Part shown: in pieces, positions 1 through 63,043 of the stretch
How the letters are laid out: each line of letters starts with the position of its first letter
Numbering within the stretch: the stretch's first letter is position 1
Origin: Azolla caroliniana
Taxonomy: Eukaryota > Plantae > Polypodiophyta
NCBI GenBank assembly: GCA_043228905.1
Contig: JBHGNT010000011.1
Location: forward strand, 14,818,001-14,882,000
DNA: 64,000 bases
Reading direction: 5' to 3'
Notes under the pieces: model-generated
Told to the model about the DNA's origin: nothing
Database searches by the model: none
Seen by the model: only the letters and a program-made list of their open reading frames with translations
Position numbers and translations under genes: made by a program

Positions 1-1
1 A

Positions 2-3664: not shown

Positions 3665-3674
3665 AGGGGGAGTT

Positions 3675-32686: not shown

Positions 32687-34177
32687 AACTCCCCCATCAC
32701 TCATGTGGGGAGGATTCTGTTATTCCTATCCTCTGTCGACAGACTCTAAGTCGGTCCATCGGTAGTTTCTTTGTCAGCATGTCGGATCCATTGTCGTCAG
32801 TATGGATCTTCACGAGGGAAAACTCTCCTTCTTTGATTTTCTCTCGTAACCAGTGATACCTTCTCTGTATGTGCTTGGTTCGGGAGTGGTATGCAACATT
32901 CTTGGCTAGATTTATGGCACTCTAGTTGTCACAATGAAGCAAGAAATCCCTTTGCTTCATCCCCAATTCGCTGAGAAAGTTTCTCATCCAAATCAGCTCC
33001 TTGCCGGCCTCTACCGCTGCCATGTACTCTGCCTCTGTGGTCGACAAGGACATAGACTTCTGTAGTCGTGACTGCCACGACACTCCTCCCCCTGCATAGG
33101 TCATCACGTACCCTGATGTGGATCGGCTTGAGTCTACATCCCCTGACATGTTTGAGTCGGTAAACCCTTTGAACATGGTTTTCCGACACCATACTTAAGA
33201 CACACACCCAAGGTGCCTTTTAAGTACCCGAGTATCCATTTCACCGCTGCCCAGTGTCCTCGTCCTGGATTACTCATGTCTTATTGTTCCCACAACAAAA
33301 GCTATGTCTGGTCTCGTGTAGACCATAGCATACATTAGATTGCCGACAACTGAGGCATATGGTACTTTCCTCATCTCAACCTTTTCTTTCTCCCCTCTCG
33401 GGCATTGCTTTGCATTTAGCTTGCAGTTAGTTGGTAACACCGAGCCGACCGGCTTTGCTTCCGACATGTTGAATCTTTCTAGGAACTTAGTCACGTATTT
33501 CTCTTGTGACAACCACACCACTTTCTTAGTTCTATCTCGAACTATGTGCATCCCTAAGATCAGTTTAGCCGGTCCAAGATCTTTCATGGCAAATGATTTG
33601 CCTAGAGCTTTCTTCAAGCTTCAGATCTTCCTTGTATCTTGGCTGACTATCAACATGTCATCTACATATAACAAGAGAATCAAGAAGTCCCCTTCATCAT
33701 ACCTTTTGACGAACACACAATGATCGACCTGTGTTTTTTGGAACCTATGTTCCATCATGAAGGACTCGAACTTCTTGTACCATTGGCGTGGAGCTTGTTT
33801 CAACCCATACAAACTTTTCTTCAGTTGACAGAACAAGTTCACTTTCCCTTTCTCCTCAAAACCTTTGGGCTGCTACATGTAAATCTCTTCATCCAGCTCC
33901 CCGTGCAAGAATGTTGTCTTGACATCCAATTGTTCGATCTCTAGATCCATACTGGCAACTGTGCTCAGAACAGTTCTAATGGATGTCATCATCACGATTG
34001 GAGCGAATATTTCGTCAAAGTTGACACCCTTTTTCTATTGGAACCCCTTCACTACTATGCGGGCTTTATACCTAGGCACATTGTTGACTTCTCAAGTCTT
34101 CACCCTGTAGACCCATTTATACTTGAGTGCTCTCTTACCTTTCGACAACTCTACTAGGTCGTAGGTATAATTCTCGT

Positions 34178-34724
34178 TGTCGTGAAGATTTTCGTCCATA
34201 GGCGGAAACCGGGGTGGAATAGGCAAGTTAGTGGTGTGCTACATGTGCACATGTAAACTAGGATATGGTGTATAGAAAGAGAGGGGAAATTTTATCCCAC
34301 ATTGTAAGGTCCCTCCCTCCTTGGGCTATAAAAGGAAGGGAGGGGTCACTTATGAAGGGTTGCCTATTTTGAGGGAGAGAGGCATACCACTTAGGTCGAG
34401 GGTTTCCTATTCGGTTTTAGGGTTTTGGTTAGGGTTTTCTTCTTGGGTTTTCCTTTAGGGTTTTCTTATAGTCGTTTGGTGCGGCCATGGCGGCCACCAT
34501 TGTAAAGCGTTTATGTTTTCTTAATAGAACTTCTTGTTGAGTATCTTGACTCCATCTTCTTCATCTTCTTCTTCTTCTTCTATCATAATGTCATATTCGT
34601 TCTCTTCTCCTCTTGAGCTATGAGCTAATCTTCCATTCGTTATCTTAACCTTTCTCCTCTTCTCCCTAGTCCAAGACCCCCGTGGTCCCGCCCCTTCCAC
34701 ACGCACGCGCGAAACTTCGCGACA
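34178..34724 (+). mobile_element. gypsy-family solo LTR (547 bp) inserted in the RT start of copia I
   Basis: TGTCGTGAAG...CTTCGCGACA termini, TATAAAAG, 4-bp TSD TCGT restoring DSLYENYTY. Confidence 0.9.
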
Positions 34725-37182: not shown

Positions 37183-37833
37183 TGCTGAGAAATGAATCAT
37201 CAATCCACAAGAAAAGGAATATGCTGAAATACACAACTCTGAAACACAGAAAACAGTGTACACAGATTTAACGTGGAAAACCCTAAATCAGGAGAAAACC
37301 ATAGAGAACGGAGCTTCACTATACAGTGGATATACAACAACGAGATTAGAGTACAACACTCTCTACATAGAGTGTAAACAGCCTCGCAGGGATCTTGGCG
37401 TATGTTGTTTCTAAAACATAGCTATGGCGCCGTTCACTCACTCACGCTCCCACACACTCTCTTGTGTATCGCGCTACGCTACAGAGGCTCACCCATATAT
37501 ATCCATTTTTTGTTTTCCCTAGGTGTATTTATACTAATACACAGAATGGAATATTTACAATCATGGCCATTATTATTATCCAATAATAATAATAATAGTC
37601 TTACTAATTAGCCGACTCATTTGTCGACTGTCGGGTCGGTCCGACTAGTCGGCCTGGTCATCGACCATCCGGTCGGCCCGACTAGCAAGTTGTGTCTTCG
37701 ACCTAGATCAACTCTCTCTGAGTCAACTCCTCAACCGTCGGGTCTCATCCGATCAGTCGGCTGTTCCTTGTCTTCGACTGTCGGCTCTCTCTGAGTAGTT
37801 GGCTCCTCCCACTGGAGGGACATATTCCTAATA
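37183..37833 (-). repeat. 5' LTR of copia I
   Basis: Adjacent to PBS; TSD GAAGG follows. Confidence 0.92.
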
Positions 37834-39361
37834 GAAGGCTACATGGGTAGCATCCAGAACAGAGTCATGAAGTTTTGCAAAGGGAGCCTGATCATGGCCC
37901 GAGCCCGGAAGATCAACACACTATACCTGATGCATGCCCAGAGCTGCCAAGAGGAAGTGAACATGGCATCCGAAAATGCCGGTGATCTCTGGCACAAGTG
38001 GTTGTGCAACATGAGCCAGAAAGGGATGAGAAGAGTTGCCGAGGACAACCTCATTCCGGAGGTGAAAGACGTGTAGCTTGAGAAGTGCACCGATTTCTTG
38101 GCCGGCAAGCAAAATCGAACCTCTTTCTGGACAAGACCACCGATGAGACGGAATGCACCACTGGAACTTGTGCATACCGATGTATGCCAAGTGGACACGA
38201 AGTCACATGCCGGATCACAGTACTTCGTGACGCTCATAGACGACCAGAGCCGGAAACTGTGGGTCTCACCGCTAAAGACGAAGGACCAGGTATTTTCCGT
38301 CTTCAGGGACTTCCACGCGAGAGTGGAAAGGGAAACTGGCCGGAAGAGGAAGGCAGTTCAAGCGGACAACGAAGGCGAATACTGAGGGTAGTTTGAAGAG
38401 TACTACTGGTAGAAAGGAATCCAGCTCGAATTCACTGTGCTGAAGATGCCGGAATTGAACGGATTGGTCGAAAGGATGACCCGGACCATAATGGAGAGAG
38501 TCCGAAGCATGCTTGCACATGCTAAGTTACCAAAGAAATTTTGGGTTGAGGCACTGATGACGACGACCTATGTGATAAACAAATCACCCTCAACACCCTT
38601 GGATGGAGACATATTGCAGAGAGCATGCATGGATAAAGATGTATCTTACCGGCACCTAAAGGTGTTCTAGTGTCTCTCCTACGTGCATGTAGCAAAGGAC
38701 AAGAGAGCGAAGTTGGATCCGAAGACCTGACCATGTATATTTCTTAGATACGGCGATGATGAGTTCGGCTACCAAGTCTGGGACTTGGTTGACAAGAAGA
38801 ACTTCTAGAGTCGAGACATAGTCTTCATGGAAGACAAGACTATTGCTGATTGGGATTCAGAGAAGAAGATAGGAGACTCTGGGTCGATCGACAGAGATCG
38901 GTCTGAAGAGACAAGGACCTATCCGGCCGGGAGCCGGATGACACTCGAAGAACCGGCCAGAGTCGGACAAGAATGCAAACCGACTGAAGTCCGTTGCACT
39001 ATCGACAATGGAAGCGGAGTACATGGTAGCTGTAGAAGCCGTTAAAGAGGTAATCTGGATGAAGGACTTCATCGGAGAGCTAGGGATCAGACAAGAGGAA
39101 TTCCGGCTCCACTGCGACAGTCAAAGTGCTATCCACCTTGCGAAGAACGAGGCCTACCATTCCCAGACCAAGCACATTCAGAGGAGATACCACTAGCTCC
39201 AGGAGAAGGTAGTTCAGATAAAGAGTTCTTACTGCTGAAGATCCACATGGAGGAGAACGGGTCGGACATGCTGACCAAGGTGTTGTTAGCCGACAAGCTG
39301 GACGTGTGCAGGAGACATATCAGATTGACAAGACATCCCATGCCGGAGTGAAGGGGGAGCT

Positions 39362-39865
39362 TGTTGGGAATTCGGTCCCTCCGGATGGGATCCAGATGAG
39401 AACCGGATGAACCAGACTGGACGGATCCGGATGAATCCGGTGTGAACCGGATCCAGGGACATATCTATAAATATGTTTTTGATCTGTCTGTCATGGCTAT
39501 ATTTGTAAATAGTCCCAAAGTCATATAAGATAAATATGACTTAGGGCAATCACTTTATGTGTTGTTGTCATTTTTGTTGTATAGTGTGGAGAGATAGAGG
39601 GAGAGAGATACATAAAGGATTTTCTGTTGTAACCACCTGTTCGGCGAAGGCGAGGTCATTGCCTCTGAGTTTCGCGTTGAAACCTTTTCTTCTCATAGTG
39701 ATAGTTGGAGTCTGTGGGCTCCCGTGGTTTTTTTCCCTATCAGGGTTTTCCACACAAACATCATGTGTCCTCTCTGTTGTCTGTGTAAGTGTATTAATCT
39801 CCATTTCTGTTTAGATCTTCCATTGAGTGTTCTGCTCGGTTGTGGCCGAGCGTCTATTCCTCACA
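39362..39865 (+). repeat. 3' LTR of copia H
   Basis: Direct repeat of 30313-30825 after the PPT. Confidence 0.92.
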
Positions 39866-40594
39866 AGTACCATCTTCTTGGGAATGTAAATACCCCATAA
39901 CTATTTCCAATATTTTGATGCAACCAATAAAGAGGCATTCAATAAAGTTATGTTTAGTGATATTGTATGTTATTGTAGTGGATGGGTTCATTAATGTACC
40001 ACCGAGACATTTTTGATTCATGTAGCAACAATAAATTTATCACATTGCAGCAATTACTAGATAATGGTGGGAATCAAATTATGCATGCGTTTGGTCATGT
40101 GAACTATAAAAACAGTATGACTCCTCCAAATTTGTATCATATACCTTTTGAACAAGTCTCCTTTAACATTCCTATGGTAAAAGCAGAATGCCCTCGTGAA
40201 TCATTTCACTATCTTCATACCTCAAAGAGTCAAAGACACCCCAATCTCGTATCTCTTCTCCTCCATTACTTTCTGTGTCTTATCTAAACTAACACTTAAA
40301 CTCTCTAAATAATACCCTACATTCCGCAATGGCATCAAATAATATATTCCACGATAGCATTTAGTAAAGTTTTGTGCTATCTTAGTTTAGAAAAAGTTTG
40401 TGATGTAAATGATAATATGTAGAAGAAGAAGATGTTGGTGATGATGCGGAAGATGATTTAGGACTTGTCAGAGAGTCTAGCAAAAAACACAAGTGAAGGT
40501 ATGCACTGTTGCGTAGAGAGAGAGATGTGTTTAAAAAAGATTGCGTTACATTAACCTTCAAACTCTTCTTTACAAGGTAAGTAACCCACTTATA

Positions 40595-43500
40595 TGTTGG
40601 GATTTCGGTCCCTCCGGATGGGATGATGAGTACTCGGCAAGGAAGACCCGGTGAGAACTGGATGATGCAGGCCCGGTGAGAACCTCTCACCGGATGAAGG
40701 GACAAATATGTAAATATGTTTTGGAGAAGCCCATTGGGGCTATATTTGTAAATAATCCTAAAGTCATATTAGTATAAATATGACCTAGGGCAAACACTAT
40801 TGAGTGTTGTTGTAGATAATTGTAAGAGTAACTGTTGTACAGAGAGAGAGAGAGAGAGATAGATACAACGTGAGTCTCTGTTGTAACCGCCACCAGGCGA
40901 AGATTGTGAGCAAGAGGTCGTTGCTTTTCTGTTCCTTTTGTTGTATTCTTCTAGATATAGTGATAGTTTGGAGCTAGTGGGCTCCCGTGGTTTTTTCCGT
41001 TTAGGGTTTTCCACGTAAACATCCTGTGTACTCTTTCTTGATCTATTGTTTGTGTGTATACGTGCATTTCTTCCTATTCCCATCTTTCTTTGGTTGATCC
41101 TAAGACTCGGTTGTGGCCGAGCAATATTTTGAATATTCCTGTCAAACTAGTATCAGAGCAAACAACACAGAAAATGGAAGAATCTTTCGGCGGCATGTTC
41201 AAGCTCACTAGCTCCAACTACTCAGTGTGGAAGTCAAAGATGAGGGACATGCTGGTGGTTAAAGATCTTTGGTTGCCGGTTCAGTTCGGGGACAAGAGAT
41301 CGGATAAGATCGACGCCACGGTGTGGGAGGTGATGCACATGAAGACGACGACATACATCTGGTGCTTCATCGACATGAGCCTGTACAACAACTTCAATGA
41401 AGAGAGAAAGGCTCACAAACTCTGGGAGAAGATTGACATCATGTTCCAGAACAAGAATGCCGTTAATCGGGTTTCGGTATTCCGGAAGCTAGTGCGGCTT
41501 CGGTACCAAGATGGCTCCAGCATGGTGGAGCACATGAATGCCTTCCAAGGGCTGATTCACCAGGCAACATCGTTGGAAGTACCTCTCGCTGATGAGGTAC
41601 TAGCATTACTCCTACTCGGTTCCCTCCCGGATAGCTGGGAGACTTTAGTTGTCATGTTGGGCAACGCCGGGCCGGAAGGAAAACAACTATCCCTAACAAG
41701 GGTCAAGTCGAACTTGCTAGATGAGGAGGCGTGTCGGAAAGGCAAAGAGGTGATCTCCGACCCCAAAGCGCTCTTTACTGAATCGGAATGTGGAAGACAA
41801 AGGAATTGGAGTTTCTATTGCGGGAAGCCGGGGCCCTTCCAGAAGAATTGTCAGCATTTCCGGAAAGACAAGGGAACCGACAATACCGATTCGAAGCGGT
41901 CTCCGAACCGAAATGGTTCGGACCGGACCGGAAGGGAACGACGGTGATCGTGGCAAGTGAAGAGGAAATAATGCTCATCACCGAGGAGAATGAGTTGAAC
42001 CTTGCCGACGACGAGACAACATGGGTTGTCGATTCTGGGGAGTCGTTCCATCTTACTCCGGACCGGAAATGCTTCTCATCCTACACAGTCGGCGAGCACA
42101 ACTGTGTCCGGATGGGGAATGAGGGAACATGCCAAATTGTCGGAATAAGAGACGTGTGGTTGACAACACCAACCGGATGCAAGATGCTGTTGAAGGATGT
42201 CCAACACGTTCCAGAGGTTCGACTGAACCTGATATCAGCCGGTCGGCTAGATGATGAAGGCTACATGGGTAGCATCCGGAACGGTGTCATGAAGTTCAGC
42301 AAAGGGAGCTTGATAGTGGCTCTGGCCCGGAAGGTCAACACATTGTACCTGATGAATGCCCGGTTATGCCCGGAAGAAGTGAATGTAGCATCCGACACTG
42401 CCGGTGAGCTGTGGCACAAGAGACTGTGTCACATGAGTGAGAAGGGGATGAGGAGGCTTGCCAAAGACAACCTCATTCCGGTGAAAGACATGCATCTTGA
42501 GAACTGCACCGATTGCCTGGCCGGTAAGTAAAACCGGACCTCCTTCCGATCAAGGCCACCGATGAGACGGAATGCACCATTGGAGCTAGTGCATACCGAT
42601 GTGTGTCTAGTGGACACGAAGTCACATGCCGGATCGCAGTACTTCGTGACGTTCATAGACGATCACACCCCGAAGCTGTGGGCCACACCGCTGAAGACGA
42701 AGGATCAGGTGTTATCCGTATTCAAGGAGCTCCACGTGAGAGTAGAGAGGGAAACCGGCCGGAAGCTAAAGGTGGTTCAAGTAGATAATAGAGGAGAATA
42801 CCGGGGGCAGTTCAAAGAGTACTACTGCTCGAAGGGAATCCGGCTCGAATTTACCGTGCCGAAGACCCCGGAACTCAATGGGTTGGCTGAGAGGATGAAC
42901 TGGACCGTAATGGAGAGGGTTCGGAGTATGCTAGCACATGCAAAGTTACCCAAGACGTTTTGGGCTAAGGCGCTGACGACAACGATGTACGTGCTAAACA
43001 GATCACCGTCAGTACCCTTGGATGGAGACATGCCACAGAGAGTATGGACCGGTAAGGAAGTGTCCTACCGGCATGTAAAGGTGTTCGGGTGTCTCGCTTA
43101 CGTGCATGTTGCAAAGGACCGGAGAGTGAAGTTGGATCCTAACTCCCGGCCTTGCATATTCCTCGGATACGGCAATGATGAGTTCGGTTACTGAGTGTGG
43201 GATCCGTACGATAGGAAGGTTTTCCAGAGTTGAGATATTATCTTCATGGAGGACAAGACCATTGCCGATTGGGAGTTGGAGAAGAAGATAATGAACTCCG
43301 AAGAGACTGGTAAGGATCGGTTCGATGAGATACGGACCTACCCGGCTAGGAGCCGGTTGACACTCGAAGAACCAGCCGGTTTCGAAGTAGAACCTGAACC
43401 GATCGAAGAAGAAGAGGAAGCGGAAATCAGAACTGGACAGGAACCTGAATTGGATTCGGATGAAGAACAAACAGAGGAGCCGGTTGCCGAAAGCCAAGGA

Positions 43501-45090
43501 CGGAGATATCTTCTCCGGGAGAGAAGAGCCCCCCGAAGATTTCCGGATGCAGAGCATGTGTTGCTAACCGATGAGGGGGAGCCGGAAAGCTTTAAAGAAG
43601 CAAGGGGAGACACCCACAACCACAAGTGGTTGAGCGCCATGCAGGATGAGATGGATTCCATGCATGAGAACCACACATACGAATTGGTGGAGTTGCCGAA
43701 AGGAAAGAGGGCACTCCGGAACAAGTGGGTGTACAAGATGAAACCGGGAGACGCCGGAAATCCACCAAGGTATAAGGCCTGAATCGTGGTGAAGGGCTTC
43801 CAACAGAAGAAAGGAGTGGACTTCGATGAGATCTTTGCCTCGGTAGTAAAGATGACATCCATCCGGACGGTACTGGGCATAGCAGCAAGCATGGACCTCG
43901 AGGTAGAGCAACTGGACGTGAAGACGACATTCCTCCATGGTGACCTCGAAGAGGAAATCTACATGCAGCAACCGAAAGGATTTGAGAAGAAAGGGAAGGA
44001 GCACCTTGTGTGCCGGTTGAAGAAGAGCCTATACGAAGTGAAGCAAGCTCCTCGGCAATGGTACCGGAAGTTTGACTCCTTCATGACCGACCAAGGGTAC
44101 CACAAGACGCAGGCCGATCACTGCGTGTTTGTGAAGAAATTTGATGGAGGAGATTTCCTGATATTGCTCCTGTACGTGGACGACATGTTGATTGTCGGAC
44201 GAGACCAAGTCAAGATACGGATGCTGAAGAAGGCCCTTAACCGAACCTTCTCAATGAAAGACTTGGGTCCGGCAAGACAGATATTGGGGATGCACATCAT
44301 TCGGGACCGGTAGAAGAAGCTATTGTGGCTGTCACAGGAAAAGTATGTGACAAAGGTGCTTTAGTGGTTCAACATGTTGGACGCGAAACCGGTCGGATCG
44401 ACACTTCTAGCAAACTGCAAACTATCCGGAAAGCCGAGCCCGAGGACAAAGGCAAAGAAGGCGGATATGCCTCTGCGGTCGAGAGCTTGATGTACACAAT
44501 GGTGTGTACTCGACCAGATATTAGATATGCAGTTGGAGTGGTGAGTCGGTTCATGAGCAATCCCGGAAGAGAGCACTGGAACACGGTAAAGTGGATACTT
44601 CGGTACTTGAAAGGCACCTCAAGTATGTGCCTCCGATTCGGCTCCAGTAAACCCCATCTCGACGGTTTTACCAACTCAGATATGTCGGCTGATGTGGATA
44701 CCAACCAGTCAACATCCGGATATGTTATGACATATGCAGGGGGAGCTGTTTCGTGGCAGTCGAGGTTGTAGAAGACGGTTGCGTTGTCAACCACGGAGGC
44801 AGAATACATGGCAATTGTGGAAGCCGACAAGGAAATATTATGGATGAAGGACTTCATTGGAGAGCTAGGGATCCGACAAGAGGAATACCGGCTCTATTGC
44901 GATAGTCAAAGTGCCATCCACCTTGCAAAGAATGCGGCGTACCATTCCAGGATGAAGCACATCCAATGCAGGTATCACTGGATCTGGGAGCGAGTGGAAG
45001 ACCGAGAGTTCGTGCAAACGAAGATCCACAAAGAGGAGAATGGGTCGGATATGCTGACCAAGGTGTTGACACCCGACAAGATGGATGCGT
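40595..45090 (+). mobile_element. Ty1/copia element J (A-related), degenerate, interrupted at the RNase H end by gypsy F
   Basis: 5' LTR 40595-41144, mutated PBS TAGTATCAGAGC 41148-41159, gag ATG 41173, pol fragments collinear with A. Confidence 0.93.
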
Positions 45091-46804: not shown

Positions 46805-47179
46805 TGTCGAGGTTTTCCTCGCGGATGCGTGGAATGAGGCGGGACCTCGGGGGTCCTGTACCAAAGAACAAGAGAGAAAGGAGAAGATGCCCACTACGTG
46901 CGAGAGTAGATTCACAGGGACACGACCCTTCGACACAAAGACGCGAGTGGGACAGCGACACAGGGAGACACAAACGTATGTATGTATTAACAAAGACAAA
47001 CAACACAACACGGAGTCGGTTACAACCGAACAGGCCGGCGAACAGATGCCGATACCTATTCGTAAACGCACAGAAAGGAAGGAGTAGGTTGGAGGTGCTG
47101 CCGGAAGCACTCGGGCATTCCTTAGAGCAGCGCGAGCCTCCCGAAACCTGCACAGAAGGAAGCTATGGCGTTTGCGAAC

Positions 47180-47239
<60 letters not shown>

Positions 47240-47470
47240 CCTTCGCCCACGAACCGACAACACTTCGTCCTCAACTCTCCGCGATCCCTTCGCCCCTCCT
47301 CGTCTCCCTCCTTTTATAGGCAAGGAAGGAGCCGTTTCCCCTTTACTTCCTACCTACCGAATCTGCCTGCCTAGGATCTCCTATGTACAACATAAGGCGC
47401 ACGTGCATGAAGAGCCGGTTCCTATGCTCTGGTGCACCGATTCCGCTTGTGGACGGTTTTCTTCACGACA
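46805..47470 (-). repeat. 3' LTR of gypsy E (666 bp)
   Basis: Differs from the 5' LTR by about 10 substitutions (hand count). Confidence 0.94.
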
Positions 47471-47543: not shown

Positions 47544-50500
47544 TTATTCCCCGCCCGTCGGTTCTTCTTCGGTTTCGGATCGTTCGTCGTCCCGGTCCAG
47601 GTTATCCGGATCCGGCTCGTCGTCGTGACGCTTCTTGAACGCTTTGATCCGCTTCCCAGCTATTGGTATCGCCATTCTCGTGCCGTCGAGTTCCACCAGA
47701 TGGTACGTCCCGTTGTCGTTGGCGCTTTGTACCACGTAAGGCCCGAACCACCTTCTTGCGAACTTCTGTGTCGCTCGGTGTTGGTTGTCGAGGCTGCTGT
47801 CGTAGACTAGCACCCAGTCGCCTTCCTCGATCCTCTTTGGTCGGAGCCGGTGCATCCGGTCAAACCGGGCTTTGTTCCTCGTCCTGGCCACCTGAAGCCT
47901 TTCCGCAGCTTCCTCCACGTCCTCCGGTCTTCGCTCGAGCTGTCGTATGCGCGCCGTCAACAGTTCCTCCCGGCTCATCTCGTCTCTCCAGTCCACAGTT
48001 GCCCATGAGGAGATCGTACGTTCCATCGGCATGATCGGCTTCTGCCCAAACATGAGCTCTGCCGGCATGAATCCGGTGACCGAACTGTGCGTAGTTCGGT
48101 CAGCCCACAACGCGTAAGGCAGCAGCCGTGGCCAGTTCCCGACTTGCCCTCCGCATGCCCGAACTAACGCCTTGACGATCGGTCCGTGTCCGCGCTCCAC
48201 CTTCCCATTCGCCTCCGGATTGTACGCAGTGGTAAGCGAGAGCTTGACTCCTAGCCGGTCGAACAGCTCCTCGGCCTCTTCGGCGTCCAACTCCCCGCGG
48301 TCAGCCACGATCTTCCCGACGCACCCGTACCGGCATATCACGTCCTCGATCAGGAACCGACATACGGCCGCGGTTGTTTTGTTCTGAAGGGCTCGGCCTT
48401 CCACCTGGTTCGTCAGATCTTCCCGAGCCAAGACCAGATACCGCATCTGTCCTACGCCCATCGGCATCGTCACCAGATCTACCATCCATTTGAAGTGGAC
48501 GGTCGGAGGGTACGTAGGGTGAAGCTTGTCCCGATGCCGAACTATGGAGTGCATCTGGCAGCTCTCGCAAGTTGCCACGAACCGATGCACGTCCCGGTAC
48601 AGTCACGGCCACCAGTACTTCCCCTTTATCTTCTTGAACGTGGCCCACGTTCCACGGTGACCAGCCCAAGGGCTGTCGTGGTAAGCCGTTAGCAGCTCCT
48701 CCTGTTCTTCCTTCATCGCCACCACCCGGAGCGGGACGCCGTTCCTCTTCTTCGGGTGCTTCCATCAGTATCCATCCTGCAGAAAGAATCGGTAAGCTTT
48801 CTTCCGGACCCGGTTAGCTTCGTCCTTCGTCCATGACGCATCCGGCATCATTGTCCTCAAAAACCCACCAATCTGCAGCCACTCGCCGTCATACTTGCTC
48901 TCGTCGAAGCCGTTAAGTGCCGGAGTGCTCGCCCCATCGGTCGTCACGTACGCGGCCTCGAAGAAGTCCACGCCGACTTCTTCGTCCTCTGAAACCATGC
49001 CGCCCTCGTCATCAAACCTCGCCCTCGAAAGCATGTCGGCCATGGCGTTGTCTTTTCCGGAAATGTGTCGTATTTCCGGGTCCAGGGACTTGATGTACGC
49101 TATCCACCTGAGCATCGCCAGGTCCGGTGTCGCGCATCCGGAAACCATGCCGAGAATTGGCAGGCAATCCGTCTCGACAATCACTTCCGTCCCGATCAGG
49201 TAGTCTTTGTCGGCCTTTAGTGCCGAAACGATACCCAAGAGTTCGCGTTTAACCTGGGCGTACCCTCGTTGTCGCTCACTGAGGACCTTCGCGCCGAATC
49301 GGATCGGGAACTGAATGCCGTCCCCGTCTTCTTGGTTGACGACCCATCCGATCCCGGTTGGACTCGTATCCACCGTCATGTATACCGGGGTACCCTTCTC
49401 GTAGACAGCCTTCCGGAGTGCCGGTGTTGCTGCAAGAGCTTCCTTAAGCTTCCGGACCGACTCCGTGTGCTCGTCTCGCCACTCGAATTTTCGCCCTTTT
49501 TTCAGCAACCCGTATAACGGCTCCGCAACGTGGGCGTAATGCGGGATCCATATGTGGTAGAATGCGCATGCCCCCAGGAACCTCCGAACTTCCGTAACCG
49601 AGCTACAGTCGGTCTTCATCGCGGAAATAGCTTCTACCTTTGCCGGAGACGGCTTCTGGCCATATGGTCCACATAGGTGTCCGACCACTAGGATTTCCGA
49701 TTGCCCGAAGGCCGATTTCTCCCCGGAGAAGGTGAGCCTCGCATCCTCTAGCCTTTGTAGCACTTTCTCGCAGTCGTCGATGTGTGTTGCAACGAATCGC
49801 CGGCATCCGTCCGGTCCGAGTGTTGCGTCCCTCTCTTCTACCGGGCCCCCCTTGATCGGAATGTCGTCCAGAAATGGCATGGTGATGTCCGGGATGCAAT
49901 CTCTCAGTACCTTGTTCATTGCATTCACCATGTGTGCCACCGAGTTGGTCCCTCCTTGTGGCAGGGTACACATTCGTACTAGGCCGAGGGGAGTTCGCAT
50001 CGTCGTAATGTCTCTGCTCTCCATGGCTAGCTGGAACTGGTCGTACCCCGAGTACAGATCACCGACCGAGTAAATCGACCTTCCGGCGAAAGCCTCCGCG
50101 AACTCGTCTATGGTCGGTCCGATCCCTGCGTTCCGAATGGTCTTGAATGAAGGTCTTGAATGAAGCGCAATGATCCGTCTTTCTTTGGTACGGTAAACTA
50201 TCGGTTCGAGTATGGCGCGCTCGACGGTTCGAGAATACCCATATCGACTTTCTGCCTCAATAGCTCCATCAACTCCGGGATGTGAGCTCTTGGTACCGGA
50301 ATCGGCTTGAGATTCCACGGCACATGCGGTACCGTGAATATCACCATCGGCTCCACGAGTGTCGGGTCTACGCACCCGATCTCTTCCGGCGAAAATGCGA
50401 AGGCTTTCCCGTGCTTTCCGAGCATTCTCCGAAACTGGTCGTCCTCCGCCGGCAGTAGGAACCCGCCCCCACCGATCTTGAGCTCCCGGAGCGTCCCGTC

Positions 50501-51000
50501 GGTGAAGGTGTGTCCTATGCAGGCCGGATCTCGTAAACTGGGGTCCGACGCAACCCCTCTGATTCGGGACTCGCTGCCCTCCGGCAAGGGTGCCGCGACT
50601 GGCCTTACCTTCCGGTCCACAGTCTTGTACTTCATGCTAACTCGGGCCGTAAGATCCGACCCGAGCCCCCGACTGAAGTTCGCGATGACTTCGTACATCT
50701 CTTCGGAACATACCGGTATCGTCCGGTCCTCGCTAAGGCCTTCTCCGGCTACCTTCCTCAGCATTCCCAAGGTGTCGTCGAAGGAGACCGCCTCCAGGGC
50801 TCCACTGATTTCCTCGTCCGGGCAGAGAACTCCGCACGCACGAAGTCGCACTTCCACCCTTGTCCTTTCTCGGCCGATGATGCTGACTACCATACACCCT
50901 CCGTTGTTGGAGAAGCAAAATTTCCCACCTATCGTACAGTCGTGGGGTCTTTTCCGAGTGTCCGGGCTGTCTCGGCCCCACACCTTGGCAGCCCCCTCTA
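47544..51000 (-). pseudogene. gypsy E pol (RT FLDD, RNase H, integrase with HHCC, DDE, GPY)
   Basis: ORFs 50198..50983, 48765..50375 and 47544..48590; stops at 50198 and 48765; 13-bp duplication frameshift at 50139-50164. Confidence 0.92.
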
Positions 51001-51007
51001 AAAATCC
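50942..51007 (-). promoter_or_regulatory. putative -1 ribosomal frameshift signal (G GAT TTT TAG plus pseudoknot)
   Basis: Ends the gag-PR frame; the -1 frame opens into pol; conserved at 60521-60586. Confidence 0.75.
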
Positions 51008-53124
51008 TCCCGGTTCTCGCCACCGAGGGATTCGCGGTTTCTCTCGTGGTTCGGCCGCACCGTCAGAAATTGGACCGAATGGCGCCCGTCCTGGCTTTTG
51101 ACCCTCGCGTAGGCCGAACCGTTGTCTAGCACCTTGGTCTCCATTCGCGCCGCCGTGATGTATGGTTCACCTAATATGACCGGGTGCGAGGACGTCTCCT
51201 GTACGAAGAAGTGCTGGTCAATCTCGACGTCGCCGATCTTGACTCGCACGTTTGGGCAGGCCCCATGCAGTTCCTCGGTGGCGCGCGTCGCCGCCCGTAT
51301 CTTCCACCTGTGCTTGGTGTTCATCGGCCACTTCCCCTTCTTATAGAAGTCCATGGACATCAGGTTTATTTCCGAACCGTGGTCCACCAATGCCACCACC
51401 GGTTCCTGAACATCTCCGATCTTTACCGAGGTCTCCGTGGTCGCTCGGGCCTAGTGTGGCCTCGAATAGTGGCTCTCCGCCCACTCATCTGCCAGCGCCG
51501 AGTCGTCGATGTGCGTCGTCCGCACCTCTACCGGTCTTTCCGGTTCCGTCTCCGTCGACAGCCTCTTCCGTTTCACCAAGTCTACAATGGAGTCGTGGAA
51601 CTCCTTCTTGGCGATCCCTAGCACCTCCCGCAATGACAGCTCCACTTTGCTGTCGAGGATCCGTTCTTCTAGGACCTTTCGTAGGTCCGTAGTCCTTTCT
51701 ATTTCCGTCCCCAATCGGTATCCTCCCTTCCTGGGGTTATCTTGCGAGCTAGACCCACCGGCATCGTTCCGTCGTTGCCCGAATTGGGTCTCGTACCGTT
51801 GTGAGGTCCCGGTCGCTCCGGCTTTCCCCACCTGTTTGTCTTCAACCAGAGCCTCGTAGTTTCGGCAGGCGGCTTCTACAAAGCCCGTCTTCTCCTCGAC
51901 TGGATTGCTCCACCCGGTTATTTCCCGGACCCGTCTCTCAGCGTGGTTCGTTTCATCTTTCCTTAGCCGTGCGCTGGCAAGACCTTCCAGCATTGCCGAC
52001 CAGAATCCGTCTTTGCCCTCCTTTCGGGCCTCGCTGCCCCCGACCCGAATGCCGGCCGACGCCGAGTAGTGGATGGCCTCCACGTGTCGGGCCGCCGCCT
52101 CTTCCATCAGTCTCTTCATTCCTCCTCGCCCGTCGTTTCGGTTCAGGGCCCTCCTGGTGTCGCCGGCGTGCACCCGGCCTTCCCACAGGTACACCACCCG
52201 GTTCCTCAATGCTTCTGCGAAATCGCCGCAGTCCTTCCGGATGTGGCCGACCTCGTCGCACCACATGCACCTGTTCCCTGTTGCCGGCCGTCGGTCACGA
52301 GCCGGTTCGCCGCCTTCCCTTCGAGTCTGGGCGATCTGGAGATCCTTTATTGCCCGCGTCAACTCGTCCAGCGCTGCTCCTCCGGACGAGCCATTGACCA
52401 TGCCGGTCGAAGCCGGACCGGTTTCGAGCCATTCCCGGGTCTCTTCCCTTCGCACTTGCGGTGCCGGTTCAAGCCTCCTTGCTGTGACAGAGCCCGCACC
52501 GGCCGCCCCGTTGTCAGCCCATTCTCGCCGTTTATCGAAACGGCCACAGACTCTCTTAACCGCAGCCCAGTCGGTTGTCAGCCCGTCCTCGGTTTCCAGC
52601 AAGGAGCCGACTTGGTCCCGGTCCCGCTCGTCCACCGACTTGACGAACAGTAGGACCCGGCTCGTATCCAGAACGGTTCGGTCAAGCGCTGAAAGGCGCG
52701 CAAAGCATTCTTCGAACTCCCGGAGGAGTGCCGTCGCGTTTCTTCCCTTTCCGGGGAACTCCACCCATTCCATGAAGTCCCGTTTCGAAAGCCGGAGCAC
52801 GTCGTCCAGCTTGTATTTTTCTAGGAGTCGGCCTTCGAACTCCTCCCAGGTACGGCTCTCCGCCCGCACCTCGAGCACCTCCGCATGGATGCTCGGCATC
52901 GCCACTCGAGGAAACCCGGCAAGAAGCCCCTCTTCCGGAATGTCCCGCATCAGCATTTCTGCCCCGTAGGACGCCAAATACTTCGTGGCATCCTTTCCGC
53001 TGAACCGGCCAATCGTACCGATGACCGCCTCAATGGCTCTGTCGAGGGCGCCGGTGCCCTCGCGTGCACTCAATATCCGATCCACGGCCGAAGCCATGGC
53101 CTCTGCAAGATCCGACCCTTTCAT
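50998..53124 (-). pseudogene. gypsy E gag-protease, one TGG>TAG stop at 51451
   Basis: CMWCDEVGHIRKDC knuckle, VDHGSEIN aspartic protease; copy D has W at the stop position. Confidence 0.9.
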
Positions 53125-53146: not shown

Positions 53147-53164
53147 TTCACGTCGGGTTCACCA
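53147..53164 (-). other. primer binding site complementary to plant tRNA-Trp
   Basis: TGGTGAACCCGACGTGAA matches the 3' end TTCACGTCGGGTTCACCA of plant tRNA-Trp(CCA), recalled from memory. Confidence 0.85.
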
Positions 53165-53540
53165 AAGATGTCGAGGTTTTCCTCGCGGATGCGTGGAATG
53201 AGGCAGGACCTCGGGGGTCCTGTACCAAAGAGCAAGAGAGAAAGGAGAAGATGCCCACTACGTGCGAGAGTAGATTCACAGGGACACGGCCCTTCGACAC
53301 AAAGACGCGAGTGGGACAGCAACACAGGGAGACACAAACGTATGTATGTATTAACAAAGACAAACAACACAACACGGAGTCGGTTACAACCGAACAGGCC
53401 GGCGAACAGATGCCGATACCTGTTCGTAAACGCACAGAAAGGAAGGAGTAGGTTGGAGGTGCTGCCGGAAGCACTCGGGCATTCCTTAGAGCAGCACGAG
53501 CCTCCCGAAACCTGCACAGAAGGAAGCTATGGCGTTTGCG

Positions 53541-53601
<61 letters not shown>

Positions 53602-53625
53602 CCTTCGCCCACGAACCGACAACAC

Positions 53626-54601
53626 TGTTAGGAAACAGGTCCCTCCGGATGGGAAGGGAGAAGAACAGTGCCGACGAACAAACTGTATAAACCGGATGGG
53701 GAGTACCCGACTGCGGAGAGCCGGATGGTGTAGACCCGGTATGAACCGGATGAGGAGTACCCGACTGCGGAGAGCCGGATGGTGTAGACCCGGTATGAAC
53801 CGGATGAGGAGTACCCGACTGCGGAGAGCCGGATGGTGTAGACCCGGTATGAACCGGATGGGGAGTACCCGACTGCGGAGAGCCGGATGGTGTAGACCCG
53901 GTATGAACCGGATGGGGAGTACCCGACTGCGGAGAGCCGGATGGTGTAGACCCGGTATGAACCGGATGGGGAGTACCCGACTGCGGAGAGCCGGATGGTG
54001 TAGACCCGGTATGAACCGGATGAGGAGTACCCGACTGCGGAGAGCCGGATGGTGTAGACCCGGTATGAACCGGATGAGGAGTACTCGACTGCGGAGAGCC
54101 GGATGGTGTAGGCCCGGTATGAACCGGAGGAAGAGACATATTCGTAAATATGTCTCTGAGAGCCCATCGAGGCTACGTTTGTAAATAGCCGGAAAGTCAT
54201 ATTAGTATAAATATGACTTAGGGCAAACTTTTAGGTGTGTCGTTTTTGTTGTTGTCATTCTTCCTTGTTGGTGCAAGAAGAAGAGAGAGAGCGTAACTGT
54301 ACAGAGAGAGAGAGAGAGACGAGGTCGTTGCCTCTATTATAACCGCCGCCTGTGGCGAAGATCTGAGAGCACGAGGTCGTTGCCTCAGTGAACTCACTGT
54401 TGTATATTCCTACAAAGTGACAGTTTGCAGCCTGTGGGCTGCCGTGGTTTTTTCCCCTATTTTGGGGTTTTCCACGTAAACCTCCTGTGTACCATTTCTC
54501 CCCTTTGTGTCGCGTTTTTTTTTATTACCTGTTTTTCTGTGTATGAAAAGAATCTCGGTTGTGGCCGAGCATCGGACATAAGGAACGTCGAGTTCTCAAC
54601 A
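53626..54601 (+). mobile_element. solo LTR of the copia A family (976 bp)
   Basis: TGTTAG...CAACA; collinear with 3675-4320; no PBS or PPT. Confidence 0.92.
53685..54128 (+). repeat. 8 tandem copies of a 54-bp U3 repeat
   Basis: GAGTAC at 53701, 53755 ... 54079. Confidence 0.97.
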
Positions 54602-56661
54602 ATTTCGTCCTCGACTCTCCGCGATCCCTTCGCCCCTCCTCGTCTCCCTCCTTTTATAGGCAAGGAAGGAGCCGTTTCCCCTTTACTTCCTACCTACCGA
54701 ATTTGCCTGCCTAGGATCTCCTATGTACAACATAAGGCGCACGTGCATGAAGAGCCGGTTCCTACGCTCTGGTGCACCGATTCCGCTTGTGGACGGTTTT
54801 CTTCACGACACCGTGTAGTCTACTCCGCGTCCGGTTCCTTCATTCTCGGCACCACCGTGTGCCGTCCCCCGTCGTCCTTGTTCAGCACCGCCTATGCTGA
54901 ACACCGTCCTGCGATCGTGCTTTGAACCGGCCCTCGGTGGCCATATGCATGTCTCTTGTTCCGCTTTGGGTGCGCCATCCCGGCTCAACACATCGCTCCT
55001 TGCTTGTCCTTACCGGCTACTTTTGAATCCGTAACCGGGCAGTAAGGATTCGCCTCATTGTCCACTCTTCCACGTTGCCGGGTCCCATTCCCTACCGCCA
55101 CCGTCCTTCTCACTCGGTCTCACCCTGCCACGTCGGCTTGGGCTGCTGGTGTCTTCGGATCGGTGTGAGGATCCCATAGGACCGGCCTTCCTTTTCTCCT
55201 CCTTCCATCGACCTTGTCGGAAGGTCCGGTTTTGGTTTGTGGCCACCTCGTCGGCCCGTTACCTCCTTGCCGCTCTACCTTCGTCATCCGATCACGTTCA
55301 CCTGCCGCCACCGTCCTTTCCTATAGGACTCATGTTGGCACTCGGGCCGACCGCCGGATCAGTGTGAGGATCTCGTGGGAAGTCCCCCTTTTCCGTCTTC
55401 GGTTGCCCGCCTTGCCGCCGCCACCGTTCTTCTCTCTAGGTCTCACGCCAGCTCTCATTGCCGGTTGCCGGAGTGTCTAGAACTGGTGTGTGTAAGGTCG
55501 CAGCAGCACCGCTTGCCGTTTTCCCCTCGTCGTAGTTCCGACCTCTGCGTCGGCCTCTTCTATTGGTCACGTTCACCTACCGCCATCGTCCTTTCCTATA
55601 GGACTCACGCCGGCTCTCGGGCTGACCGCCGGATTGGTGTGAGGGTCTCCGTAGACCGCCTAGCCACAGTCCTTTGCCTTCGTACCCTCGCCGCTATTGT
55701 TCGTCACTCTAGGTCTCACGCCGGTTCTTGGGCTGACCGCCGGAGTCTCTAGAACCGGTGTGAAGGATCCTCCTTGGGATTGTTGTATATCGAACCCTGC
55801 CCTAGTCACACGATATACAACAAGCCCAAGGACGATCTGCGTAGGCCTGCTCCTAACTCCCTTCCGGATCGGTTATCCGGAAGTTCGCTCCGCGCGGTTC
55901 TCATCTGGGCTCGTCCATCACTCTGCATTGTCGGGTTCCGTTCTCTTGCCACCACCGTCAGTGTCTTGGTCTTACGTCGGATCCGATGCCGACCGCCGAA
56001 GTCTCTAGATCCGGTGTGAGGTGACCCATAGGACCAGTCTTAGCTCTCCGCTTCGTCCCTTGTACTTCTACCGAATTCGTTGTCGCTCTCCTTGCTGTGC
56101 TCCCGCCTCCATCTCCCTTCTGTTTTAGTATCACGTTGCCCACGTGGGTCGAACTGCCAAAGTCTCCGGTCAAGATGTGGGTCCATCGATTTCGTAACGA
56201 CTCCCAATGAATCATTCGGGGCCACCGACCCTTCTAGTGGTGTCGGTGGAAAGCATTCGTTCCATGATTGATCAAACCCCACCAGGGCTTGATTCTCCAA
56301 TGTCCGGAGTTCCTGCCGGACTTGTTCCGTACCCTCGATCATCTTCCTTTCGATTCCTGACCTTCGCCCGGTCGGTCTTTCTCCCCATGTAAAAGAGGGG
56401 GGACTGGCCCGCACCCTCTTCCGTGTTGGCACCTTCATGCCGAACCTTGCCCTAGTCACACGTTCCATGTCCGGATCGTGCTCCACCCAAATCGGGATAC
56501 TGACCACTCTGATCCCCGGTCGGTTCAACTTCTGATTTCGCTCCCCTCGGTGCCAACTCTCATTCCCTCCTTCTCTGCCGTAGCTCCATCCTCGACCTTC
56601 TCGTAGGCCGTTTCCCATCCGCCTTTGTTGGCATCGTGCCAAGACTCCTCGCTTGTGCCTT

Positions 56662-58408: not shown

Positions 58409-60520
58409 TATTTGGTGAACCCGACGTGAATAGGCGACAAAGGAATAGGAAAATGAGGTGATCGGAGCTTGTAGAAGCCATGGCTTTAGCTGTGGATCGG
58501 ATAGTGAGTGCGTGCAAAGGCGAAGGCGCCCTCGATAGAGCCATTGAAGCGATCGTCGGCATGATAGGCCGGTTTGGTGGAAAGGATGCCACGAGCTATT
58601 TGGAGGCCTACTGAGCCGAAATGGTGACGAGGGACATTCCGGAGGACAGGCGACTGACTGGATTCCCTCGGGTGGCAATGTCGAGCAACCATACGGAGGT
58701 GCTCGAGGTACGGGCTGAGGGCCGGACCTGGGAAGAATTTGAAGGGCGGCTCCGTGAGAAATACGGGCTTGATGACGCGCTTCGGCTATCGAAGCGGGAC
58801 TTCATGGAATGGGTGGAGACCCCAAAAAAGGGAGAAACGCGTCGGTGCTCCTCCGGGAATTTGAAGAACGCTTCCCGCGTCTTTCGGTGCTGGACCGGAC
58901 CATACTGGACACAAGTCGTGTCCTATTGTTTGTTAAATCGGTGGACGTGAGGGAGTGGGAGCAAGTGGGCCTCCTGCTGGAGATCGACGACGGGCTGACG
59001 ACCGACTGGCCCGTGGTGAAGAGAGTCTTCGGCCGTTTTGACAAACGACGAGATTGGGCCGATAAAGGCTCAGCGGGAGGAGGCTTTGTTGCAGCAAGGA
59101 AACTCGAGGTACCCCCACCGGCGCGAAGGGAGGAGACCCGAGACTGGCTCGAGGCCGGCTCGACTTCGACCGGCGTTGTCAAAGGCCCGTCCGGAGGAGC
59201 GGCTCTAGAGGAGCTGACTCAGATGGTGAGGGACCTCTAGATTGCACAAGCACGGAGGGACGACGGCGAACTAGCCCATGACCAAAGAAATCCAGCTGGG
59301 CATCGGTGCTTGTGGTGCGACGCGGTCGCCCACAACCGAAAGGACTGCAGGAACTTTGCCGAAGCGATAAGGGCCAACGTGGTGTACCTATGGAACGGGT
59401 GGGTACACGCTAGCGAAACCTGGAGGGCCCTAGATCTGAACATCGGACGAGGGAGAATGAAACGGTTGATGGAGGAAGCGGCGGCTCGCCATGCGGAGAC
59501 CATCCACTACTCGGCGTCGGCGAGAATCTAGGACTCCGGGTTCTAGCCGTTGGTGCTGGAAGGCCTAGCCGGAATACGGCTGAGGAAAGAGGAAGCGGAC
59601 CGCGCGGAAAGACGGGTCCGGGAGGTAACCGGGTGGAGTGACCCGGTCGAAGAGAAGACGGGATTCGAGGAAGCCGCATACCAGAACTACGAGGTTCTGG
59701 TGGAAGACAAGCGCACGGGAAAGATCGGGGGGGCTGGGCCCTCACAATGGTATGAGACCCGGTTCAGGCTGAAGCCGAATGATGTCGGTGCATCCGGCGC
59801 ACCGAACAAGGCTAAGAAGGTCGGTTACCGGTTGAGCACAGAGATTGAAAGGACCATGGACCTACGAAAGGTCTTGGAGGAACGGATCCTCAACAACAAA
59901 GTGGAGCTGTCACTGAGGGAGGTGCTCGGAATCACCAAGAAGGAGTTCCATGACTCCATCGTAGACTTGGTGAAGTGGAAAAGGTTTTCGACAGAGCCGG
60001 AGCCGGAGAAGCCGGTGGAGGTGCAAACGACGCACCTAGAAGACATGGCCCTGGAAGACAAGCTGGCGGAAAGCCACTACTCGAGGCTACATTGGGCTAG
60101 GGCCACTATGGAGACCTCTGTTAAGATTGGAGATGTCCAGGAGCCGGTGGTTGCGTTGGTAGACAACGGTTCGGAAATCAACCTAATGTCCATGGACTTT
60201 TACAAGAAGGGCAAGTGGCCGATCAATGCCAAGCACAGGTGGAAAATACGAGCAACGACGTGTGCCACAGAGGAGATACACGGAGCCTGCCCGGATGTAC
60301 GAGTGAAAATCGGTGATGTCGAGATTGATCAACACTTCTTTATGCAGGAGACATCCTCGCATCCGGTGATACTCGGGGAACCGTACATCACAGCGGCACG
60401 AATGAACAGTTCAACATACGTGTGAGTCAAGAGCTGGGATGAGCGTCACTCCGTCCAGTTTCTGACGGTACGACCGAACCATGAGCGGAACCGAGAGACC
60501 CTCGACGGCGAAAGCCGAGG

Positions 60521-60586
60521 GGATTTTTAGAGAGGGCTATCAAGGTGTGGGGCCGCGATAGTCTGGACACCCCGAGAAACCCCCAC
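60521..60586 (+). promoter_or_regulatory. putative -1 frameshift signal in D
   Basis: GGATTTTTAG, stem GGGCTATC/GATAGTCT, GTGGGG/CCCCAC. Confidence 0.7.
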
Positions 60587-63043
60587 GGATGTACTGTAGG
60601 GAAGAAACCTTGTACCATAGGTAGGAAGTTTTGGTTCTCCGATAGCGGAGGTTGTACAATAACCGACGTCGTTGGCCGGGAGAAGAAGCAGGTAGAAGAG
60701 TGACTCAGGGCATGTAGAGTCCTCGCCCTTGAAGAGGAAATCAACGGAGACGTGGAGGCGATCTCTCTTGATGACAACTTGGGGAAGTTATGGAAGGTGT
60801 TCGAAGAGGGCCTTAGTGAAGACCGGACGATTTCTGTATGTTCGGAAAAGTTGTACGAAGTCATCGCCGACTTCGGTAGAGGACTCGAGTCGGATCGGAT
60901 GGCCCGAGTGGACACGAAGTACAAGACTGTGGACCGGAAGGTGAGGCCAAGCGCGGCACCCTTGCCGGAGGGCAGCGAGTTACGGATGAAAGGGGTCGCG
61001 TCGGACCCAAGTTTACGAGATCCGGCCGGCATAGGACACCGATTCACCGACATAACGCTATGAGAGCTCAAGGTAGGTGGGGGTGGCTTTCTACTGCCGG
61101 CGGAGGAGGACCGGTTTCGGGGAATGCTCGGGAGGCACAAAAAGGCCTTCACATTCTAGCCGGAGGAAATCGGGTGCGTAGACCCGACGATTGTGGAACC
61201 GATGGTGATCTTCACGGTACCGCATGTACCGTGGAATCTCAAACCGATTCCAGTACCTAGAGCTCACATCCCGAAGCTAATGGAGCTGCTGAAACAGAAG
61301 GTGGATATGGGCATCCTCGAACCGTTGAGTGCCGCATATTCTAATCGGTGGTTTACCGTGCCCAAGAAGAACGGCACGCTGCGCTTCATTCAGGACCTGC
61401 AACCGGTCAACAAGGTGACCATTCGGAATGCAGGAATCGGACCGACCATAGATGAGTTCGCGTAGGCCTTCTTTGGAAGGTCAATTTAGTCGGTCGGTGA
61501 TCTGTACTCGGGATACGATCAGTTTCAGCTAGCCGTGGAGATCAGGGACATTACGACGATGCGGACTCCTCTCGGCCTAGTACAGATGTGTACCCTTCCG
61601 CAAGGGGGGACGAACTCGGTAGCCCACATGGTGAACGCAATGAACAAAGTGCTAAGGGATTGTATCCCGGATATCACCATGCCATTCTTAGACGACATCC
61701 CGATCAAAGGATGCTAGTGGAGGATAAGGACAAGACAATCGGACCGGATGGATGCCGGAAATTCGTGGCGGACCACGTCGATGACTGCGAGAAGGTGCTG
61801 CAAAGACTAGAAGGATCGAGGCTCACCTTCTCCGGGGAAAAATCGGCCTTCGGCCAATCGGAGATCATGGTCGTCGGACACCTATGCGGGCCATTCGGTC
61901 GGAACCCGTCGTCGGCCGAGGTAGAGGCCATCTCCGCGATGAAGCGTGACTGCAATTTGGTCATGGAAGTCCAGAGATTCTTGGGAGCATGTGCGTTCTA
62001 CCATATTTGGATCCCGCATTACGCCCACGTCGCGGAGCTGCTCTATGGATTGCTAAAGAAAGGGCATAATTTCGAGTGGAGAGAGGAGCATACGGAGTCG
62101 GTCTGGAAGATGAAAGAAGCACTTGTTGCGGCGCCGACACTCCGGAAAGTGGTCTACGGTAAAGACATTCCGATTTACGTGACCGTAGACATGAGTCCGA
62201 CCAGAATCGGATGGGTGATCAACTAGGAGGATGAGAATGGCACGAGGTTCCCCATCCGGTTCGGTGCGAAAGTCCTCAGTGAACGACAACGAGCTTTGGG
62301 GTATCGTTTCGGCGGTCAAGGTCGACAAAGACTATCTGATCGGGATAGAGGTGATAATTGAGACAGACTCCCTGCCGATTCTCGGTATGGTTTCCGGATG
62401 CGCGACGCCGGACCTGGCAATGCTCAGGTGGATAGCGTACATCAAGTCCCTGAATCCGGAAATACGACACATTTCCGGAAAAGACAACACCATGGCCGAC
62501 ATGCTTTCAAGGGCGAGATTCGATGATGAGGACGGCATGGTTTCGGAGGACGAAGAAGTCGGTGTGGACTTCTTTGAGACGGTGTCGTGAAGATCCGTCA
62601 CTACGCGCGGATCGTGAGGCGGAACCGCCGGGGTTCTGGACCGGAAGGATTCAAAGTCGGTACAAGCTTTGGCGCAAGCTTTGGCGAGAAAGTACTTAAG
62701 ATAGATTGGGAAAGGGAGAAGTTGAGATTAAACGATTGAGAGAGATTGATTGAACTTTTATCTTTGGATTTAAGAAACAAGTTACACGATCAATTTGATA
62801 ACGAATTTCTTCTTCTTAATTTCATAACAAAAAAAACGCGTTTTTTCTCCTCCCCCTTCCTTCTTTTATAGATGCTCTCATGCATATGATGCATGTGAGG
62901 GTACAAGACATGCATAAAATTCATGCTTGCCATTTGGCGCTTATGTATTACATGTGGTGCATGATAACCATGTCACTCATTTTAGCTCTCATGTATGAGA
63001 ATTTACATGTAAAAGTACAATGATAGAAATATAAATTCAACTA

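Follow-up and report, generated by a model that had tools for sequence, protein, structure and literature searches.

The window, a 64,000-nucleotide stretch of the Azolla caroliniana genome, carries two elements, E and D, that by their sequence are decayed copies of Phygy-type Ty3/gypsy LTR retrotransposons. E has LTRs, a primer binding site, a polypurine tract and a target site duplication, with the domain order GAG-PR-RT-RH-INT of Ty3/gypsy elements (Table 1). Its LTRs are about 97.8% identical over 644 aligned bases, and the ACGG duplicated at its ends fits NCGN. The complement of the primer binding site is located in host genes called tRNA-Trp(CCA) at all four loci checked. We assigned E and D to Phygy by two features listed in REXdb, the NCGN target duplication and the tRNA-Trp primer site. 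Among 20 fetched E-like copies, the duplication is an exact NCGN in nine and has one mismatch in four; an end is unresolved in three and the remaining four lack an LTR pair. Clusters of the tRNA-Trp 3' motif are also present in the genome at G000:C8:17796786-17823371 (~1.2 kb spacing), C16:4989495-5105657 and C5:10105608-10112201, and are probably tandem tRNA gene arrays.

Table 1. Positions of the main features of elements E and D in the window
Feature	Position	Strand	Remarks
5' LTR of E	53169..54810	-	broken at 53627-54596 by another repeat; ACGG flank
Primer binding site of E	53147..53164	-	complementary to 3' end of host tRNA-Trp
gag-PR reading frame of E	50998..53124	-	first ATG after primer site at 53124
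CCHC knuckle in gag-PR of E	52269-52228	-	
Premature stop (single) in gag-PR frame of E	51451-51453	-	
Protease motif LVDHGSE in gag-PR of E	51390-51370	-	
Slippery heptamer G_GAT_TTT of E	51001..51007	-	predicted -1 shift site
TAG stop of E gag-PR frame	50998..51000	-	first half of 6-nt spacer (50995-51000)
Stem 1 of E predicted pseudoknot with 15-nt loop	50964..50994	-	50994-50987 with 50971-50964; 7/8 positions pair
Stem 2 of E predicted pseudoknot	50941..50982	-	50982-50976 with 50947-50941
pol of E	47544..51004	-	linker of ~125 codons in -1 frame, then RT, RNase H, integrase
3' LTR of E	46805..47470	-	polypurine tract before, ACGG after
D cassette	60521..60587	+	heptamer 60521-60527, TAG 60528-60530
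D stem 1 (predicted)	60534-60541/60557-60564	+	8/8 pair
D stem 2 (predicted)	60546-60552/60581-60587	+	

Pfam reports DUF4100 and a weak aspartic protease upstream of the gag-PR/pol junction of E, and RT, RNase H and integrase downstream of it. Neither a chromodomain, an archaeal RNase H nor an extra ORF was found by Pfam on five ORF pieces of the broken E, the pol of which extends to the polypurine tract. Stops and frame breaks disrupt pol in this copy, and pol is also broken in all 20 E-like copies that were fetched. The nearest named homologues are Physcomitrium patens proteins with 62-70% protease identity; others are from Riccia and Adiantum. A PDB sequence search with the protease alignment returned a best E value of 0.36, and a viral_contigs search gave no relative. 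The protease active-site motif is D-H-G in E and D-N-G in D (60156-60176, plus strand), where D-T/S-G is usual. In 20 homologues the D and G are invariant and the H nearly invariant. The protease made at the Gag level may be a weaker one.

Other repeats lie in the window. The one that breaks the 5' LTR of E has 54-bp tandem units and resembles 3749-4320; it is probably a copia solo LTR, as 3749-4320 is beside a copia element at 1-3700. Several Ty1/copia elements, some broken, occupy 1-7000 and 31000-45000, and at 7800-16800 a unit of 350-360 bp is repeated in an array, ~25 times and in diverged form. D is broken in RNase H at 62583 by an LTR-end-like start (TGTCGTGAA after ACGG) resembling 4321-4574.

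The zero frame ends GAG GAT TTT TAG in E (51010-50998, minus strand) and GGG GAT TTT TAG in D (60519-60530, plus strand). A first-pass annotation had claimed a common cassette at this junction, and we located its heptamer, TAG, 6-nt spacer and both stems in E and in D. The -1 frame it gave, FLE.A.KVWGRDS, is also read in both. The stems are where it had placed them but not of the extent given: stem 1 is best drawn over eight positions, with one C.A mismatch in E, and stem 2 reaches 7 bp. In both elements, four unpaired bases separate stem 2 from the 3' strand of stem 1. Rfam at an E value of 5 or below returned a single chance match on the wrong strand for 50800-51150 (E value 1.2). From the shift site to a conserved KYK motif before RT runs a linker of ~120-150 codons (50630-51004 in E, minus strand) that resembles no known family.

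Conservation of the frame offset and the heptamer

We surveyed the offset between gag-PR and pol in this genome and in metagenomes. In 59 of 60 genome copies chosen by similarity to E or D, pol is at -1, and the one exception has an indel in the site. The heptamer is kept in 85 of 90 scored genome loci, 30 of which were chosen by a pattern containing most of it. The pattern GATTTTTAG-N12..22-GTGGGG has 2526 exact matches in the genome versus 17 for the reversed control, though this count is mostly copy number and the evidence for selection is conservation across families. A 6-nt spacer accounts for 1928 genome matches and a 5-nt spacer for eight.

Scoring was possible at 60 of 80 metagenome loci, where an open pol frame overlaps with the stop of the zero frame; the other 20 had no pol match (16), ran off the contig end (one) or were broken (three). 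Pol is at -1 in 58 of the scored loci and at -2/+1 in two. Grouped at 90% protease identity, the 60 form 23 families, reaching down to ~61% identity to E, with pol at -1 in 21 and at -2/+1 in two. In 17 of the 23, the open stretch of pol is 961 codons or longer. One of these families, L185, shares its linker with P. patens predicted proteins and falls in one supported clade with other families. PR and RT in a single frame, the arrangement that the first-pass annotation had held to be incompatible with its reading, is not a family trait: it was found in none of the 60 similarity-picked copies and none of the 23 open-pol families.

Database proteins were examined for the same junction. The C-terminus of 120 Gag-PR homologues is DF in 56, NF in three and PL in 27, the last mostly a few residues past DF/GF, and an RT domain is listed in none of the 120. 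PR is joined to pol-frame sequence in 36 of 228 database proteins. Half of these (18) are named Physcomitrium gene models with joins at varied places, and the joins look like predicted introns, an annotation artefact. P0159-P0170 and other P. patens predicted proteins join across the frameshift at many places after KDFGE. A frameshift would explain why gene predictors invent introns at this junction. In one further protein, P0264 (1374 aa, from an ENA contig, 45% PR identity), PR reads through into RT; it represents a sister lineage with both in one frame, or else a copy that has mutated.

An X_XXY_YYZ-like heptamer, conserved at the nucleotide level, lies in the zero frame. It is G_GAT_TTT in 18 families, G_GAT_TTC in two, G_GGT_TTT in one and G_GTT_TTT in two, such that in all 21 of the -1 families pol lies behind G_GAU_UUY or G_GGU_UUU. 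Known variants of -1 sites include G_GA in the X positions (PMC5009743). The heptamer starts at the third, wobble base of the codon before it. This base is G in all 23 families, although that codon encodes nine different amino acids (E, P, S, A, Q, V, M, R and T); with local codon usage and each amino acid counted once, the expectation is ~8e-5. This pattern across families indicates selection on the signal at the RNA level. The stop is more variable. Four of the 21 -1 families have it five codons later, which rules out an adjacent stop as a required element, and elsewhere it is TAG, TAA or TGA. Given this variation in identity and place, the adjacent stop is not part of the required signal.

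Predicted pseudoknot and routes into pol

Twenty-five cassettes were aligned with MAFFT, without internal gaps through stem 1. RNAalifold recovers stem 1 unprompted, with double changes in six of its eight pairs. In a 10-pair version of the stem, 88% of cells are paired compared with 24-46% for slid partners. For stem 2, the loop scores 16.2 against its own downstream strand and 13.0 against strands swapped between families, a difference reached in none of 100000 permutations; in a control region both values are 8.7. As the families are related, the permutation counts for the stems are inflated and are not to be read as probabilities. Against a shuffled downstream strand, stem 2 reaches p<0.05 in 13 of the 25 sequences (E 0.07, D 0.79).

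Folded singly, all four cassettes tested form stem 1, with z scores of -2.33 for L156, the only notable one, -0.02 for E, +0.91 for D and -0.30 for L186. We treat the structure, in which stems 1 and 2 covary across families, as a predicted H-type pseudoknot. The predicted structure begins within the 5-9 nt downstream that are typical of a frameshift signal, and it covaries. The first-pass annotation had named two sequence-based checks of its pseudoknot. The first, covariation over many copies, bears it out for both stems. The second, structure prediction, does so for stem 1 by RNAalifold on the alignment, but singly neither E nor D folds better than its shuffles.

Because the frame offset, the wobble G, the 6-nt spacer and the covarying stems are all conserved, programmed -1 ribosomal frameshifting at G_GAU_UUU, after the protease and at the gag-PR/pol junction, is very likely. 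Recoding of this kind had been proposed from E and D; conservation of the frame, selection on the heptamer and covariation in both stems now support it. The pseudoknot 6 nt downstream would stall the ribosome with GAU in the P site and UUU in the A site. A minority of ribosomes would then slip back one base and make Gag-PR-Pol, with the predicted junction E-D-F-L-E, while the others would stop and release Gag-PR. On slipping, the A-site tRNA-Phe would re-pair fully and the P-site tRNA-Asp poorly. GGAUUUU is a tested -1 site of PEMV2 in wheat germ extract, where dependence on P-site re-pairing is described as only moderate (PMC4737148). The expected products are abundant Gag-PR and rare Gag-PR-Pol, a ratio we infer from this scheme. 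Protease would then be packaged as abundantly as Gag, and the amount of RT, RNase H and integrase would be a few percent of that.

Other routes into pol were weighed against -1 frameshifting. Ogre-like splicing, in which some transcripts would lose the stop and have gag-PR joined to pol, is very unlikely. The database gene models that join both frames are in line with such splicing, as is the conserved CAG|GTT of the two -2/+1 families, a possible donor. Yet 18 of the 21 -1 families lack any AG|GT donor at up to 60 nt from the stop. An Ogre-like length gap or stop-rich spacer is absent, and we found no non-coding spacer with conserved splice sites. Splicing also leaves the wobble G, the fixed spacer and the covarying stems unexplained. 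From relatives, 135, 97 and 238 poly(A) reads (mostly 85-95% alike, in both orientations and possibly including DNA) span the junction at ~4-9x per run with no joint listed, though these data are thin.

Separate synthesis of pol downstream of the gag-PR stop, whether through re-initiation, leaky scanning or an internal start, is more improbable again. In its favour, the stop is close to strong structure and the linker of every family contains some AUG. The first AUG of the pol frame is not conserved, however, varying from codon 4 to codon 109 among families, and the linker upstream of it is conserved as protein. The linker as a whole can be aligned as protein, with a third-position excess from ~codon 40 in four family pairs. 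Re-initiation would also leave the heptamer without a role.

Slippage of RNA polymerase or reverse transcriptase on the T run, adding a base so that the change is in the RNA, has hardly any probability. Most families do have a run of five T, but the two with G_GAT_TTC have only three and others four. The RNA reads, at low depth, show no listed indel at this position, and a pseudoknot at 6 nt suits the geometry of a ribosome. Least probable, and largely refuted, is an offset that is an inherited defect in copies mobilised by in-frame helper elements: the decay of E and D and the broken pol of all 20 fetched copies would fit it, but the offset is common to 23 families down to ~61% protease identity, most with a long open pol, and no in-frame family was found among them. 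Stop-codon readthrough was rejected since pol is outside the zero frame.

A sister family with pol in the -2 frame

The two metagenome families with pol at -2/+1, L151 and L156, end CAG GTT TTT (T/G)AC TAG. The sister family that they represent, which in this genome is at loci L191-L210 and L223-L232, was missing from the first-pass annotation. The sister-family pattern has 98 exact matches in the genome and its control none. At all 20 loci scored the -1 frame closes, either at once (18) or within 25 codons (two). The -2 frame is free of stops over 300 codons at eight of the 20, and two of the copies have indels in the cassette that place pol in the zero frame.

Ten of the 20 loci, chosen as the least decayed in appearance, were fetched. 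Nine have LTR pairs, which are 98.7-100% identical and mark the copies as young. Among these nine the target duplication is an exact NCGN in seven, and the element is ~7.9-8.0 kb long in eight. Five of the ten have a -2 frame in which pol runs uninterrupted over 1152 codons.

The site is AG_GUU_UUU, followed by the same predicted pseudoknot fold after a spacer of 5 nt, one base closer than in the -1 families. A 10-bp stem 1 is fully paired in 16 of 20 loci, and stem 2 is 8 bp in L151 and L156. Relative to the stem, neither the U run nor the landing frame is displaced compared with the -1 families; the incoming frame alone is shifted. The zero frame reaches this U run with a delay of one base, and a slip of -2 would land in the same register to the pseudoknot. 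In a pol tree of 26 rows, L151 and L156 group together (100/100) and are nested within the -1 families (99/100). The tree was midpoint-rooted, with distant homologues outside; five short family rows and three short protein rows were omitted. RNA reads for the sister family number four, five and one and leave the junction uncovered.

Entry into pol by -2 is probable in this family. Since +1 and -2 reach one and the same frame, pol could instead be entered by +1, at UUU_GAC/UUU_UAC or at UAG, which we consider unlikely. On AG_GUU_UUU the P-site tRNA is without a good -2 partner, and changing the first base of a U6A site abolished its RNA-stimulated -2 shift (PMC3458567); both points favour +1. 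Against it, re-pairing at +1 is poor on the common variant UUU_G. The stem starts inside UAG and, we infer, would be open by the time the stop occupies the A site. The site also equals the arterivirus -2 site GG_GUU_UUU at seven of eight bases (PMC4937337). Finally, -2 shifts are described as optimal at spacers 1-2 nt shorter than those for -1, a preference that the one-base shorter spacer of the sister family matches (PMC3458567). Splicing, with CAG|GT as a possible donor, is more doubtful than a +1 shift. Two successive -1 shifts were rejected because the -1 frame is closed.

We lean towards the sister family as a candidate for a natural -2 frameshift driven by a pseudoknot and derived from -1 ancestors, a reading drawn from frames, fold and tree. 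The broader picture, which appears rather more plausible than not, is of a bryophyte-fern lineage with a -1 pseudoknot frameshift after the protease, in which a young branch switched to -2 at an arterivirus-like site. The -1 and -2 signals share one pseudoknot and differ by one base in spacer and register, so the determinants of shift direction could be tested on natural signals. If the reading is true, the pair is a natural test of the mRNA-tension model of shift direction. To a recoding specialist, the -2 branch would be the most surprising part.

Comparison with known systems

Both the mechanism and the gag-PR/pol layout are already known from retroviruses, and it is the cassette in plant LTR retrotransposons that is probably new. 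We found no description of such a signal in plant retrotransposons in the openly available literature searched, with the 2003 survey (Gao et al.) covered through the 2016 review. Neither 'ORF' nor 'frame' occurs in PMC7466625. The plant cases that this review cites from the 2003 survey are +1-frame only, and for -2 shifts it names phage Mu, arteriviruses and Trichomonas vaginalis virus 1, none of them a retrotransposon (PMC5009743).

The closest named lineage is Phygy in REXdb (Neumann et al. 2019, PMC6317226), with which E-like elements share the 4-bp NCGN duplication, the tRNA-Trp primer site, the gypsy domain order and a compact internal region. At ~7.0 kb, they are smaller than its 7.7-10.0 kb, a range derived from one species. 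In Additional file 5 of REXdb the ORF organisation of Phygy is entered as 'ND', and for none of the plant lineages listed are GAG-PROT and RT said to be in overlapping frames (PMC6317226). Overlapping GAG/PROT frames are recorded there for Tcn1 and Selgy, with the mechanism not given. Ogre and Retand, of the Tat group, split PROT from RT at the same place, Ogre by a spliced intron spacer and Retand by a single stop, but unlike E-like elements they are described without overlapping frames (PMC6317226). If the -1 reading is true, the ORF layout of Phygy is filled in and plant LTR retrotransposons gain a defined -1 frameshift signal. The 23 natural cassettes would then be a ready covariation set for plant ribosomes.

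Alpharetroviruses, including Rous sarcoma virus, carry PR at the end of Gag. Rous sarcoma virus has a single shift with a pseudoknot (PMC3835772). The first-pass annotation had held that retroelement shifts usually lie between gag and PR; a shift after the protease nevertheless has precedent at the pro-pol junction of beta- and deltaretroviruses (PMC5009743, PMC3835772). As predicted for E-like elements, these retroviral pro-pol and gag-pol junctions combine a -1 shift, a slippery heptamer and a downstream pseudoknot after PR. MMTV and HTLV need two shifts, whereas gag and PR of E-like elements are in one frame. E-like elements further differ from retroviruses in the heptamer G_GAU_UUY, the non-seed plant host and the lack of env.

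The slippery heptamer of the dianthovirus RCNMV is G GAU UUU. Its stop directly follows the site, as in E and D, and the 2016 review describes the dianthovirus site only as G_GA plus an adjacent stop (PMC5009743). The umbravirus PEMV2 has the identical heptamer, GGAUUUU (PMC4737148). Both viruses are described with a bulged hairpin, long-distance pairing and a 5-nt spacer, while the E-type signal is a local, predicted H-type pseudoknot at 6 nt (PMC4737148, PMC5009743).

In the sister family, an RG_GUU_UUU site is combined with a long -2 ORF and a closed -1 frame, as is typical of arteriviruses. RG_GUU_UUU is the purine-degenerate form of the arterivirus site. At arterivirus nsp2TF, GG_GUU_UUU is likewise followed by a long -2 ORF (PMC4937337). 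The common variant of the sister family also shares with it an immediate stop in the -1 frame. In PRRSV a protein complex acts on a C-rich motif ~10 nt away, with no RNA structure described, whereas the sister family has a covarying predicted pseudoknot 5 nt away (PMC4937337). The arterivirus protein-stimulator motif CCCANCUCC was not seen in the aligned 72 nt of the sister-family cassettes. Given this and the pseudoknot, the sister signal resembles the arterivirus signal but is not the same. Unlike arterivirus nsp2TF, the sister family relies on the -2 frame for all of its RT, RNase H and integrase.
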